64,000 nt of DNA from a virus. The DNA lies in IMG/VR virus record IMGVR_UViG_3300037149_000100; one strand, given 5' to 3'. How positions within the stretch are numbered: the stretch's first letter is position 1; each line of letters begins with the position of its first letter. Shown in pieces: positions 5,531-63,804 of the stretch. Made by a program: the position numbers and the translations under genes. The notes beneath the pieces are model-generated. The model did no database searches. It had not been told where the DNA came from and was given only the letters and a program-made list of their open reading frames with translations.

Positions 5531-5808
5531 AGTTGGTTATTGATCTACGCAGGAAACGAGTCAAGATTGAGTTCGAGGCGACCCAGGATGAAATAGGGCA
5601 ACCAGAGACTCCGGTCAACGTCGAAGTTAAAACCAACAAAAGACAGAATAAACAGATTCTGGATCAAATCCCTGACATCACCGGCAAGCTGCTGTATTAC
5701 TTGACTATGACTAATGTGGTGCTTCTGAACTCCACCTACGCTGAGATGGAACAGATGATCATCAGGGCCTTAGAAAGCGAGAAGTGCAATGATAAGCGAC
5801 CCGTTTGA
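5527..5808 (+). CDS. hypothetical protein
   Basis: Translationally coupled ORF in operon. Confidence 0.55.
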   Translation: MKLVIDLRRKRVKIEFEATQDEIGQPETPVNVEVKTNKRQNKQILDQIPDITGKLLYYLTMTNVVLLNSTYAEMEQMIIRALESEKCNDKRPV

Positions 5809-59841: not shown

Positions 59842-60087
59842 ATGACCAATGAGTGGGATGAATTGTTTGACCATCTGGAGCAGAACCCCGTAGAGAAGGA
59901 AGAGACGGAGGATCCGATAGAAGATTGCGATTCAGAATGCTTCGAGGGGACAGAGGTCGCAACCCCCAGTCCCATCCGCCCACGACCCAGAGGCTATAGG
60001 GGAGAAACAATTGAGGATTATTGGGGAGAACGAGCCGAACAGTTCAGAAGAGAGTATCAGAACGGAGGTGTCATTAGCTTCGGTTAG
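59842..60087 (+). CDS. fourth EWDEL-motif protein; stop lies inside the terminal CRISPR repeat
   Basis: MTNEWDELFDHLE; TAG at 60085-60087. Confidence 0.6.
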   Translation: MTNEWDELFDHLEQNPVEKEETEDPIEDCDSECFEGTEVATPSPIRPRPRGYRGETIEDYWGERAEQFRREYQNGGVISFG

Positions 60088-60824
60088 AAGCTCACACAGT
60101 TAGGCCAGATGTCCCGGTGGCGGCAGCGGATCGGCGAGGAGTGTCATTAGCTTCGGTTAGAAGCTCACACAGTTAGAAGTCGCTCTTCAGCAGTACGGAG
60201 TGGACGTTGTGTCATTAGCTTCGGTTAGAAGCTCACACAGTTAGATGCTGCGGAGCAGTGGGGACTCGGGGAAGATTTGCGTGTCATTAGCTTCGGTTAG
60301 AAGCTCACACAGTTAGCGGTCGGAGAGCTTCTGGAGCCTATGGAGGTTTCCGGGTGTCATTAGCTTCGGTTAGAAGCTCACACAGTTAGATGCTGCGGAG
60401 CAGCGGGGATTCGGGAAAAATCTGCGTGTCATTAGCTTCGGTTAGAAGCTCACACAGTTAGCGGCGATGCTGTTGGCCATGGCGGTGACCGGAGCCCTGG
60501 TGTCATTAGCTTCGGTTAGAAGCTCACACAGTTAGCTGATTAGCAGCCCCATTCATGAGCGCGTAACTCCAGTGTCATTAGCTTCGGTTAGAAGCTCACA
60601 CAGTTAGCAGTTCGATGAGGCCATACAGAATAAGCGATTCACGTGTCATTAGCTTCGGTTAGAAGCTCACACAGTTAGGAGGTGGCTGAAATCCTAAAGA
60701 ATCTGGAGATTAACCCGTGTCATTAGCTTCGGTTAGAAGCTCACACAGTTAGTTGGGAACCTGAGCGGTGTAATGTTCGCGTCTCTGAGTGTCATTAGCT
60801 TCGGTTAGAAGCTCACACAGTTAG
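60068..60824 (-). CRISPR. CRISPR array: 11 identical 36-bp repeats, 10 spacers of 32-38 bp
   Basis: Repeat on - strand CTAACTGTGTGAGCTTCTAACCGAAGCTAATGACAC with AGCTTC/GAAGCT hairpin; starts at 60068, 60141, 60209, 60281, 60354, 60426, 60500, 60572, 60643, 60717, 60789. Orientation inferred from the cas gene and leader. Confidence 0.98.
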
Positions 60825-61022
60825 GGGTTGACTCACAAATAGCGGCAATCATGGAGTTTATGATAGCGATTTCGAGCAGTCTAGTCATTTCTTTGGAAAC
60901 TTCTGGAATGGCCCTCATTCGCACAGCCTAAATAGCTGATACGTATGATTCGAGCGACTCCCAGGCCCCCCTCACCTAACCTCTCGCCAAATTGTCAAAG
61001 ATCCTCACCCTACATAATACTC
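60825..61022 (-). promoter_or_regulatory. CRISPR leader
   Basis: ~195-bp non-coding gap between cas stop and array; phage GAGTATTAT box overlaps the cas stop codon. Confidence 0.65.
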
Positions 61023-63804
61023 AGAACGGCATCTTCTCGATCTCGACCCGTTGCTTGAGCAGATCTCGCCGCAGATTACGCTCCGTCTTGTCAATCCACT
61101 CCACCCCATCCAGATACCATGTGGGTCCGGTTCCGGTCAGATGTGTCCTGGCCGCTTCGAGCGATCCGAATTGATAGAGGAGGCAGCCCTTCATTCGCTT
61201 CGCTCCCTCGTCCGAACCCTTCAGATAGACCTGATGCAGATCCGTATGTCGGGAAAAGAATCGGTGGCCGATGTTCTTCGCTGCGTTGATGTCAGACGGC
61301 ACCGATTCGATTTGGCCATCCGGCGTGAGGAAGAACAAATCCCGACCCTTCCGGTACCCAATCCGACCACTCTCATGATGCACCTGAGAGGTCTGAGCCT
61401 CAGAGACGGTTACGACTCCGATCCCATACCACTGAGCCGCATTAATGATCGCATCCTTAACTCGTTTTGGAGACCAGAAAGCAGTGAGGAAGTTCTCATC
61501 CCGCTGATTCAGAGTCTTGCCATACCCCTCAAGGTCTTCTAGCACGATCAGGCAGCAATCATTCTGATGAGCGATACGGACGATCTTCGAAGCAAGTTGC
61601 TTGAGGAAGTTATCCTTGCAGCCATTGTAATCCAGCTTCTGCTGTTCCAAACAGATGGGAATGCGAGAGTTATCCGTACCCAGATAGCTGAGGGATCGGG
61701 TGACCCGTTTCCGCTGTTCAAGGATGTTGAGCCACTTGAAATCCTGATCGAACTTCTGATCAGCCATTTGGTTCTGGGACAGATACGACCGCCTCCGATT
61801 CCGCAACGCTCCGAACTGGAGTGTCACATACTTGAACAGAATATTGATGAGGAAGCTGAAATCCTTCTTGACAGACTCCAAGTTGTTTTCGTATCGCTTC
61901 ATCATCTGATCCATCTGATACAAAGGATCCGGATCCTTGCTGAACTGTTCGAAGATCTGACTCCTTCGCTGACCCGCCACCTTGTAGTCAGCGAAGAACC
62001 GCTGAACCGTATGAATCATATCAACCAGATGAGAGTCAGCCTTCAGACCTTTGCCCTTCGAACTGGATTTGACCTGACCGATCAGATGACCCAGGTTCTT
62101 ATATGCGTAGAACAATTCCGTGTAATCCGGGTCATCAGCAATCTCCATCTCTCCACTGTTCAGAATTTGAGACGGATTCGCCACACCTGTGATGGTTGAT
62201 TCGGTGACGGCCCAGGCGAAAGGACTGCGGATACCCAGGTCCACTGACATCACCTTATAGGTCTTACCCTGAATCAGATTGAACCGTTCAACCGTCTTCT
62301 CCGTATCCTTCGACAGATCTGAACCCGTAGCCGCTGCGGAAAGGTAATACTGCAAGGCAATGTGTTCCTCAGAGGCTCTCATCCCCTCTACGGACATACT
62401 GAGCCGCAGGAAGAACGCTCCGTTCCGATAAACCAGAACCGGTTCCTTGCAAATAGCCGAACGCTCCGTTCCCTTGCGAACAAAGTTCAGGTAGGTGGAT
62501 TCACCTTCTGGATTAGACCAGATTTGGAGATCCTGAAGATAAGAAGTGGGCTTCAGAGTTGAACGATGCCCTCGGAGTCCCTTGGTGTTCATCGCTATGG
62601 TATAAACTTCAAAGTTGAAGTTCTCTTTCCGGTCCCCAACCTTGACATACAGCCGCTCCACCTTTCGACCGTTCCGCATCAACACATCCTTGTCGTTATC
62701 CCAAATCACTCGATCAGGAAGCTCAGAGCCCGTAGCACTGATCAGATGCTTGGTGTAATTCCCACCCAGCAGGTAATAGAACCGATGGTAGTCAGCCTCA
62801 CCGACAAACGCATAAGCGGCAGTCTTCCGATGAGCCCGATGGGACATGATGGCTTCGAGCAGATGGAGATGTTTGAGGATCAGGGGCTTGGGGATCAGAT
62901 CATCCTCAGAGGTCTCCAACGTGTTCCACAGTTCCGGCATTTCAGCTAGCAATTCGTAGAACTTAATATCCAGGCTAAAGTCAATATGCTTCTGCCCCAC
63001 ATCCTTTCGATTCGATTTCAGATAGAAATGCTCGGTCGGAATCGTGCGTTGCTGAAGAGCCGGGATGATACAATCCCTCAGATAGTGATGAACCCGCTCA
63101 TCGAAATGACCGATCAGGTTCAGACCGATACAGGTATCAAAGAACCGCAACAGGCTCTGCCGAATCCGAACCGGAACCTCAGCTTTCATCTGCTGGATTT
63201 GAACCTCTTCCGCCGCATAGGACTCTTCGGTCATCCGCTTCATTTCGATCCAACTCTTCAGATCAGACATCACATCCTTAGTGATGGCTTTCCGTTCTGG
63301 GGCGAACAGCGTAGCGGTGAAAGGAGGGCGGGAGAAGAAGCCGATATGCTTCAACGTATTGGAGACCCGAAACAAGAATTGACTGTTGTGGCTCTTCGGA
63401 TCCGCCACATATTCGGTCAGAACGGCCCAATCCTCGGCGGTCATCTGATCCGTCTGGATTGCCCCTTCGAACAACTTCGTATACATATGATTGCCTTGCT
63501 GACAGTTCAGCAGGCCCAACCACAAAGCCTTCAGGCAATTGCTGAATTGCTCGTAACTGATGGTCCGGTCGGTCCGCTCGTAGAGAGCCTTACGCTGAGC
63601 CGTCAGATCCACCCTTTCACATCCGAGTTCTCGGCTGGTCTGATTCTGGGTCTTCTGCTCCACCCAATCCAGCCCCCAGCAGGGGACTTCATTGTAAAGT
63701 GCATGATATGTCTTGAAGCACCGCTCATACCGATCCCAGAACTGGTCCTTCCGCAGATCGGTCTTCAGTTCGATCACTCTTACTCCACTCAACTCCTTTG
63801 TCAT
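61021..63804 (-). CDS. cas12: type V CRISPR effector (Cas12 family, ~927 aa)
   Basis: RuvC-I VMSVDLGIR, RuvC-II IVLEDL, RuvC-III SDINAAKNIG; adjacent to array; AAAGGAG RBS before ATG at 63804. Confidence 0.93.
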   Translation of the reverse strand: MTKELSGVRVIELKTDLRKDQFWDRYERCFKTYHALYNEVPCWGLDWVEQKTQNQTSRELGCERVDLTAQRKALYERTDRTISYEQFSNCLKALWLGLLNCQQGNHMYTKLFEGAIQTDQMTAEDWAVLTEYVADPKSHNSQFLFRVSNTLKHIGFFSRPPFTATLFAPERKAITKDVMSDLKSWIEMKRMTEESYAAEEVQIQQMKAEVPVRIRQSLLRFFDTCIGLNLIGHFDERVHHYLRDCIIPALQQRTIPTEHFYLKSNRKDVGQKHIDFSLDIKFYELLAEMPELWNTLETSEDDLIPKPLILKHLHLLEAIMSHRAHRKTAAYAFVGEADYHRFYYLLGGNYTKHLISATGSELPDRVIWDNDKDVLMRNGRKVERLYVKVGDRKENFNFEVYTIAMNTKGLRGHRSTLKPTSYLQDLQIWSNPEGESTYLNFVRKGTERSAICKEPVLVYRNGAFFLRLSMSVEGMRASEEHIALQYYLSAAATGSDLSKDTEKTVERFNLIQGKTYKVMSVDLGIRSPFAWAVTESTITGVANPSQILNSGEMEIADDPDYTELFYAYKNLGHLIGQVKSSSKGKGLKADSHLVDMIHTVQRFFADYKVAGQRRSQIFEQFSKDPDPLYQMDQMMKRYENNLESVKKDFSFLINILFKYVTLQFGALRNRRRSYLSQNQMADQKFDQDFKWLNILEQRKRVTRSLSYLGTDNSRIPICLEQQKLDYNGCKDNFLKQLASKIVRIAHQNDCCLIVLEDLEGYGKTLNQRDENFLTAFWSPKRVKDAIINAAQWYGIGVVTVSEAQTSQVHHESGRIGYRKGRDLFFLTPDGQIESVPSDINAAKNIGHRFFSRHTDLHQVYLKGSDEGAKRMKGCLLYQFGSLEAARTHLTGTGPTWYLDGVEWIDKTERNLRRDLLKQRVEIEKMPF

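Follow-up and report, generated by a model that had tools for sequence, protein, structure and literature searches.

The window analysed here is the whole stretch of 64,000 nucleotides from the IMG/VR virus record IMGVR_UViG_3300037149_000100. It carries a CRISPR array, a leader and the gene of a single type V effector, all on the minus strand:

60068-60824, minus strand: CRISPR array of 11 identical 36-nt repeats and 10 spacers of 32-38 nt, in minus-strand reading
60245-60280, minus strand: spacer 3 (guide for allele 1), 36 nt; its reverse complement is the coding strand of the target, a predicted primase-polymerase gene
60317-60353, minus strand: spacer 4, between the variant spacers 3 and 5
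60390-60425, minus strand: spacer 5 (guide for allele 2), 36 nt, same site as spacer 3
60753-60788, minus strand: spacer 10, leader-proximal, matching the terminase large-subunit gene of a temperate phage
60825-61020, minus strand: leader of about 200 bp, between the cas12 stop codon and the first transcribed repeat
61021-63804, minus strand: divergent Cas12 effector of 927 aa, identified by Pfam, PADLOC and PDB sequence matches

The repeat, GTGTCATTAGCTTCGGTTAGAAGCTCACACAGTTAG, is identical in all 11 copies, and no further copy with up to 8 mismatches was seen in the window outside the array. Regular identical repeats, a RuvC-like neighbour and spacers matching foreign DNA by a 5′ PAM characterize the locus as an array with an adjacent type V effector. 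In Pfam, the 927-aa protein matches C2c1_RuvC-like above the cut-off and Cas12f TNB just below it. PADLOC ranks Cas12h first (6e-16) and also matches Cas12b, and the PDB sequence search returns Cas12j19/Cas12X (4e-13) and Cas12h1 (7e-4). All of these matches are confined to the RuvC region, the Cas12h profile aligning residues 729-882 or so only, and the protein is therefore regarded as a divergent Cas12. An assignment as Cas12h over the whole length fails, with only this part aligned and a PDB E-value for Cas12h1 that is weaker than the one for Cas12j19/Cas12X.

Further genes in the window gave PHROG matches to UvsX/RecA-like, NAD-dependent ligase and Ant-type families, and the record nearest to it, an IMG/VR virus contig, shares its Cas12 and repeat. 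Judged by its gene content, the window appears to belong to a large phage carrying a minimal type V CRISPR system. A search for cas1 (PF01867) in G001, the sister record of 96 kb, and in the host metagenome-assembled genome (MAG) G002 gave no match, the phage genome being incomplete; such an absence fits published huge-phage CRISPR loci (PMC7162821). Since the host MAG, a contig of 5.7 Mb, contains neither a Cas1 match nor the phage repeat, it cannot supply adaptation machinery or a matching array. The sister record was the only source of further Cas12 relatives in IMG/VR.

The comparison with two sister arrays allowed us to orient the locus. The metagenome contig Ga0302320_10081782 (L001) agrees with the window in cas12, with 97.7% identity over 3.5 kb, and in the flank on the cas12 side. 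Its array consists of two private spacers followed by spacer 2, spacer 3, spacer 6 and the flank; window spacers 1, 4, 5 and 7-10 are missing, and spacer 3 directly adjoins spacer 6. The three common spacers are 100% identical (0/106 changes) despite a divergence of 2.3% in the flanks, which indicates that spacers in this lineage do not drift quickly. The second sister, G001 (IMGVR_UViG_3300037054_000366, array L026 at G001:C1:22483-23167), shares Cas12, repeat and leader, and its nine spacers are all different. The leader flank recurs unchanged in L001 and G001, next to different spacers. Degenerate repeats are found at the far end of the L001 array and the extra spacers 7-10 of the window are cas12-proximal, which together place the leader at 60825-61020 and call for a minus-strand reading. 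The same reading follows from the strand of cas12 and from a PAM consensus that appears solely on the 5′ side. Here, the repeat ends in a hairpin directly before the spacer, and a weak sigma-70-like site is located within the leader on the minus strand (60888-60860). A plus-strand reading of the array was ruled out, as the flanks show no consensus on that side.

Under this polarity spacer 3 is older than spacer 5, and the leader-proximal spacer 10 is the newest. The L001 array is about 900 bp longer at the trailer end, where it has the degenerate repeats and the two private spacers; the window has thus lost the old end of the array. Spacer 6 is common to the window and L001, whereas spacers 4 and 5 are absent from L001. 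The simplest history is an acquisition in the order 3, 4, 5, 6 with a later loss of two units in L001.

The subject of the present study is the pair of spacers 3 and 5. Their sole differences are at positions 15, 21, 27, 30 and 33 (T/C, C/T, G/A, G/A and T/C), all five being transitions in one codon phase. Both spacers encode the same peptide in plus frame 0 (MLRSSGDSGKIC) and in minus frame 1 (QIFPESPLLRS), and their translations differ in the other four frames. A preliminary description of this DNA had reported two 36-nt spacers with five differences in a single codon phase, every change being silent in both candidate frames, and our recount and translations bear this out. The probability that five differences in 36 positions all fall into one codon phase is P = 0.0063. 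Within the window there is no third copy of the site (0 expected by chance), and self-targeting is not supported.

For the identification of the target, a site pattern in which every third position was left free was scanned in IMG/VR, in JGI metagenome contigs and in 185,579 species genomes. The species genomes delivered one match, allele 1 in the Holophagaceae MAG CAVQVX010000001.1 (G002); the JGI contigs delivered the sister array L001 only, and in IMG/VR no match was found. Spacer 3 corresponds in 36/36 positions to G002:C1:152267-152302, inside an ORF of 371 aa with a Shine-Dalgarno sequence. Allele 1 is present exactly, with the 5′ flank ATG, in four assemblies from four samples (L002, the Holophagaceae MAG, as well as L013, L022 and L023), each with no mismatch to spacer 3 and five to spacer 5. 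The target ORF runs opposite to the plus strand of the window, and the real peptide is T-W-QIFPESPLLRS-M. The real frame is thus the minus frame, which puts the five spacer differences on third codon positions, and the plus-frame peptide is ruled out because the gene runs the other way. One of the two frames proposed earlier is therefore real and the other is not, and the expected coding target with synonymous changes was found. The spacers have equal boundaries, and their differences are limited to synonymous positions of the real target frame. For all five differences to fall into this verified third-position phase we obtained P = 0.0021, in agreement with the argument that random decay would not respect codon phase.

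The 371-aa protein matches the N-terminal primase-polymerase part of PHROG DNA polymerase/primase families. It has no Pfam match, and its profile found nothing in the structure database. The following gene encodes a D5_N and DUF5906 helicase, distant homologs of the target protein carry PF09250, and DxD and sGHGxH motifs are present in the alignment. The segment WQIFPESPLLR is kept down to 61-64% protein identity. On the basis of these similarities, the target is predicted to be a primase-polymerase replication gene.

The target gene belongs to an integrative element bounded by perfect 48-nt direct repeats (G002 147716-147763 and 169362-169409), the second of which is the 3′ part of tRNA-Gly(GCC). 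The element itself (G002 147764-169361) comprises about 21.6 kb and is located in the tRNA-Gly gene of a member of the Holophagaceae (Acidobacteriota). An integrase lies at one end, 3 kb upstream of the target gene. The cargo includes a resolvase, HU and an HTH_17 protein, together with a response regulator and a PAS/GAF kinase, a C-terminal fragment of a type I R-subunit and an AAA protein of 690 aa that matches IetA in PADLOC. No genes for capsid or packaging proteins were recognised on the element. The assembly L022 (ENA contig_19414, 21,576 bp) is a circular permutation of the whole element. At its junction (5590-5700) the att core of 48 nt and roughly 25 nt of flanking sequence are missing; this is not a canonical attP and suggests an episomal derivative or a tandem form of the element. 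In L023 the element core was found at another chromosomal place, again beside the 48-nt tRNA-Gly fragment. The stand-alone T1RH-like_C fragment (1e-123) was observed in L012 (2648-3784), L013 (3052-3384) and L023 (12699-13136). In each case it comes after the D5 helicase gene, in the opposite orientation, and hence travels with the element core.

The sister phage directs spacers against the same element. In addition to window spacer 3, it is targeted by G001 spacers 3, 5 and 6, with matches of the G001 spacers at G002 164479, 167850 and, partially, 153009. Altogether four of the nine G001 spacers match the Holophagaceae genome G002 with 2-5 mismatches, mostly in one codon phase. The 238-aa ORF targeted by G001 spacer 5 has a paralog at 3.77 Mb.

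Six protospacers from the window and from G001 were available for the analysis of the PAM (in minus-strand reading):

Window spacer 3: predicted primase-polymerase gene, 5′ flank ATG
G001 spacer 3: other site in the predicted primase-polymerase gene, first 20 nt only, 5′ flank ATG
G001 spacer 5: 238-aa ORF, 5′ flank ATG
G001 spacer 6: IetA-like AAA gene, 5′ flank GTG
G001 spacer 8: start of a 111-aa ORF present twice in G002, 5′ flank ATG
Window spacer 10: terminase gene of a temperate phage, 5′ flank ATA

All six are preceded by 5′-RTR, a motif with a background frequency of 4.4% (P about 7e-9), and the opposite flank shows no consensus. Some guides match the sense strand of their target and others the antisense strand, which is what DNA targeting would lead one to expect. 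In the case of spacers 3 and 5, the TG of the PAM is part of an invariant Trp codon (W41). The preliminary description had supposed that the site is defined by a PAM and that the flanks would disclose it; both suppositions held, with RTR as the motif and the Trp codon as the source of its TG. In guide coordinates, the differences between spacers 3 and 5 are found at positions 4, 7 and 10, which are PAM-proximal, and at 16 and 22. Cas12h1 is described to use a 5′-RTR PAM and a 5-nt seed, and a mismatch at position 4 lowers its cleavage (PMC11830025). As the differences lie partly in the seed, neither guide should cover the other allele; by analogy to Cas12h1, each should fail on the other haplotype.

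Spacer 10 matches IMGVR_UViG_3300050035_000286 (L032 147-182) in 35/36 positions, and proteins of this contig match PHROG families of terminases, portal and head proteins and integrases. The one base that differs, at guide position 25, falls on a third codon position and is silent. Spacer 4 had no match in the target loci and none in viral contigs; exact 22-mers of spacers 4 and 9 are absent from IMG/VR. A blastn comparison of the array with GenBank phages gave nothing, and among plasmids there were weak, chance-level matches alone (E at least 0.06). Natural copies of the G001 spacer 5 target in L012 (15650), L022 (4143) and L029 (1501) show the PAM sequences ATG, ACG and AGG; these differences may represent PAM escape variation.

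A conserved gene with strain diversity at the targeted site had been postulated beforehand, and the same site is indeed naturally polymorphic in relatives. Members of the 90% cluster (L014-L021), with 85-88% nucleotide identity, have 4-6 mismatches to spacer 3 and 7-9 to spacer 5, their changes at the site being mostly third-position ones plus an exchange of Ser to Thr. The homologs L034 and L036 (61-63% protein identity) show seven mismatches to either spacer, and a synonymous ACT Thr codon turns their PAM into TTG. L035 (64% protein identity) has three mismatches to spacer 3 and eight to spacer 5; its gene (509-1621) is identical to allele 1 over 41 nt, comprising a 10-nt flank and guide positions 1-31. 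Gene nucleotides 60-180 are the most conserved stretch, with 83-87% compared to about 60% elsewhere, which suggests either a constraint at the nucleotide level or a recombination patch. The last codon of the site is Ser in the group of 98-100% identity, Thr in the group of 85-90%, and Asp or Gln in the 61-64% homologs.

Allele 2 was searched for in several collections. The exact protospacer of spacer 5 is absent from all three pattern scans, and 133 Holophagaceae genomes contain no site with up to three mismatches to it. The allele was also absent from the accessible members of the 90% protein cluster and the 61-64% homologs (P0012 and P0004 left out) and from short protein fragments, and no protein between 99% and 85-90% identity with Ser at the last codon was found. 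The database comparison of both spacers, as recommended in the preliminary description, thus yielded exact counterparts for spacer 3 in four assemblies and none for spacer 5. Its diagnostic bases do occur, scattered, in natural relatives at the same positions: G4 and T7 in L034/L036, T10 in L020/L021, and A16 in L019 and L020/L021. These are four of the five; G22 is in no natural allele found.

Taken together, we assign a probability of about 0.78 to the reading that spacers 3 and 5 were acquired separately, at one PAM-flanked 36-bp site and from two natural haplotypes. The earlier proposal of independent acquisitions from two alleles is supported by the third-position phase, the PAM and the exact allele 1; with respect to the second allele, the support consists of four of the five bases, the exact sequence being unfound. 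The site lies in the most conserved stretch of the primase-polymerase gene, which belongs to a family of integrative or episomal elements of about 21.6 kb in tRNA-Gly of Holophagaceae; according to the proposed mechanism, both haplotypes would encode T-W-QIFPESPLLRS-M. The guides, having the sense of the coding strand, would pair with the template DNA strand next to a 5′-RTR PAM (here ATG or GTG), whose TG comes from the invariant Trp codon. The haplotype of spacer 5 is expected to exist in nature. DNA cleavage by this Cas12 and its sensitivity in the seed are presumed by analogy to a distant relative, and a phage carrying both guides would gain wider coverage of a polymorphic element population.

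It might be argued that spacer 5 is an in-array duplicate of spacer 3 which accumulated five point mutations without a second acquisition. The two units share repeat, spacer, repeat and CGG with 95% identity over 111 nt (family D2), and an exact allele 2 was not observed in nature among the collections searched. We regard this explanation as very improbable: mutations within the array would have had to hit third codon positions five times (P about 0.002), each time as a transition, and to reproduce at four of five positions the bases of natural alleles. The mutations would also have spared 11 of 11 repeats, in a lineage whose spacers in common with L001 show 0/106 changes over a 2.3% difference in the flanks. 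Moreover, spacers 4 and 6 are unrelated, so that no tandem duplication of two units is visible.

The sister array L001, with its spacers 2-3-6 and without 4-5, leads to a different question: whether spacers 3 and 5 come from different phage strains and were brought together by an assembly chimera across the 36-nt repeats or by array recombination. The lineage shows great variation in its arrays, short-read assemblers have difficulty in crossing repeats of 36 nt, and spacer 5 was seen in this window alone. However, a deletion of two units in L001 explains the arrangement equally well and fits an addition at the leader end, because spacer 6 is common to both arrays; in addition, the window sequence shows no sign of a join. 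A chimera or a recombination event is accordingly rated as unlikely, and it would leave the conclusion of two acquisitions unchanged.

Finally, the conservation of the site bears on the source of spacer 5, which could be a more distant member of the primase-polymerase family on another element or plasmid that shares the motif. Nowhere in the gene is conservation stronger than at the motif and its DNA: L035, only 64% identical, agrees with spacer 3 in 31/31 positions at the site, and the 61-63% homologs L034 and L036 share G4 and T7 with spacer 5. Against such a source stands that spacer 5 encodes ...LLRSM, with a Ser that is otherwise present in the 98-100% group only. We consider this origin quite unlikely, and even then spacer 5 would still be an independent acquisition at a homologous PAM-defined site.

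The two-acquisition reading can be compared with several known systems. One close parallel is ICP1, a lytic phage whose type I-F CRISPR-Cas system is directed against the PLE of Vibrio cholerae (Seed et al. 2013, cited in PMC7162821; PMC9040626, PMC8844924). Both cases have a phage-borne array with spacers matching a chromosomally integrated mobile island of the host, and in both, isolates (here sister phages) carry different spacers against the same island. The present system differs from ICP1 in having a single type V effector instead of type I-F, in that adaptation genes were not seen (cas1 search of G001 and G002), in its host, an uncultured member of the Holophagaceae, in an island whose role as a satellite or as an inhibitor of the phage is hypothetical, and in an array that also targets a temperate phage (spacer 10).

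Arrays of huge phages are compact and lie beside a lone type V effector without Cas1, Cas2 and Cas4 (Al-Shayeb et al. 2020, PMC7162821), and the DNA they target is that of competing phages or is borne by the host (PMC7162821). The locus described here likewise combines a compact array, with spacers against phage and host-borne DNA, and a lone type V effector. This effector is not CasPhi and resembles Cas12j19/Cas12X and Cas12h in the RuvC region only, and the PAM indicated by its protospacers is purine-T-purine and not T-rich. Also in contrast to the huge-phage arrays, the target is the predicted replication gene of an integrative element, addressed by two allele-specific guides. Similarities to Cas12h1 (PMC11830025) comprise a single effector of similar size (870 aa for Cas12h1 and 927 aa here), the 5′-RTR PAM, a repeat hairpin next to the spacer and the best PADLOC profile match; the likeness is limited to about 150 RuvC/Nuc residues (6e-16 for the profile, 7e-4 for the PDB chain), and unlike Cas12h1 the present system is phage-borne. 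CRISPR population studies include variant spacers for one protospacer, and repeated independent acquisition at one PAM-defined protospacer has been reported for the type I-C system of Legionella (PMC5071653). In Legionella, an identical sequence was acquired, whereas here two synonymous haplotypes are represented in one phage-borne array. Phage CRISPR systems directed against a host island, type V arrays of huge phages and repeated acquisition at one protospacer are thus known precedents. What is added here is a host family, a delimited element, a natural PAM and two allele-specific guides in one small array.

As a tentative interpretation, the element may be a Holophagaceae anti-phage island or a satellite which blocks or exploits this huge-phage lineage, with the array acting as counter-defence and the spacer pair reflecting an ongoing chase; at present, we think this possible but doubtful. 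In such a chase, the island would escape by silent changes in the seed, and the phage would re-acquire at the same Trp-anchored PAM. Hints of an anti-phage role are the IetA-like AAA ATPase and the type I restriction endonuclease fragment on the island. Further hints at this interpretation are the targeting of three or four element genes by two sister phages and the PAM-variant alleles, ACG/AGG at the G001 spacer 5 target and TTG in L034/L036. If the interpretation is true, the arms race of ICP1 and PLE would have a type V analogue in soil or peat Acidobacteriota, as a second and independent case; should the island turn out to be directed against the phage, counter-defence by a phage CRISPR system would be known from a second example, a rare finding.

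The results link an uncultured huge phage to the host family Holophagaceae and to a delimited integrative element as its probable adversary, and they provide a PAM from natural data (5′-RTR) together with the guide orientation for an uncharacterised phage Cas12. They also indicate how a very small phage array may cope with target diversity, namely by two guides in the most conserved stretch of a presumably essential replication gene with a Trp-locked PAM, and from the analogy to Cas12h1 it can be predicted that each guide would cleave its own haplotype only. The spacer pair may thus document, in nature, how a virus follows the changing forms of a competing genetic element. With regard to the trailer end of the array, an 81-aa ORF on the plus strand (59842-60087) enters the terminal repeat (60068-60103) by 20 nt, and its stop codon TAG is that of the repeat.
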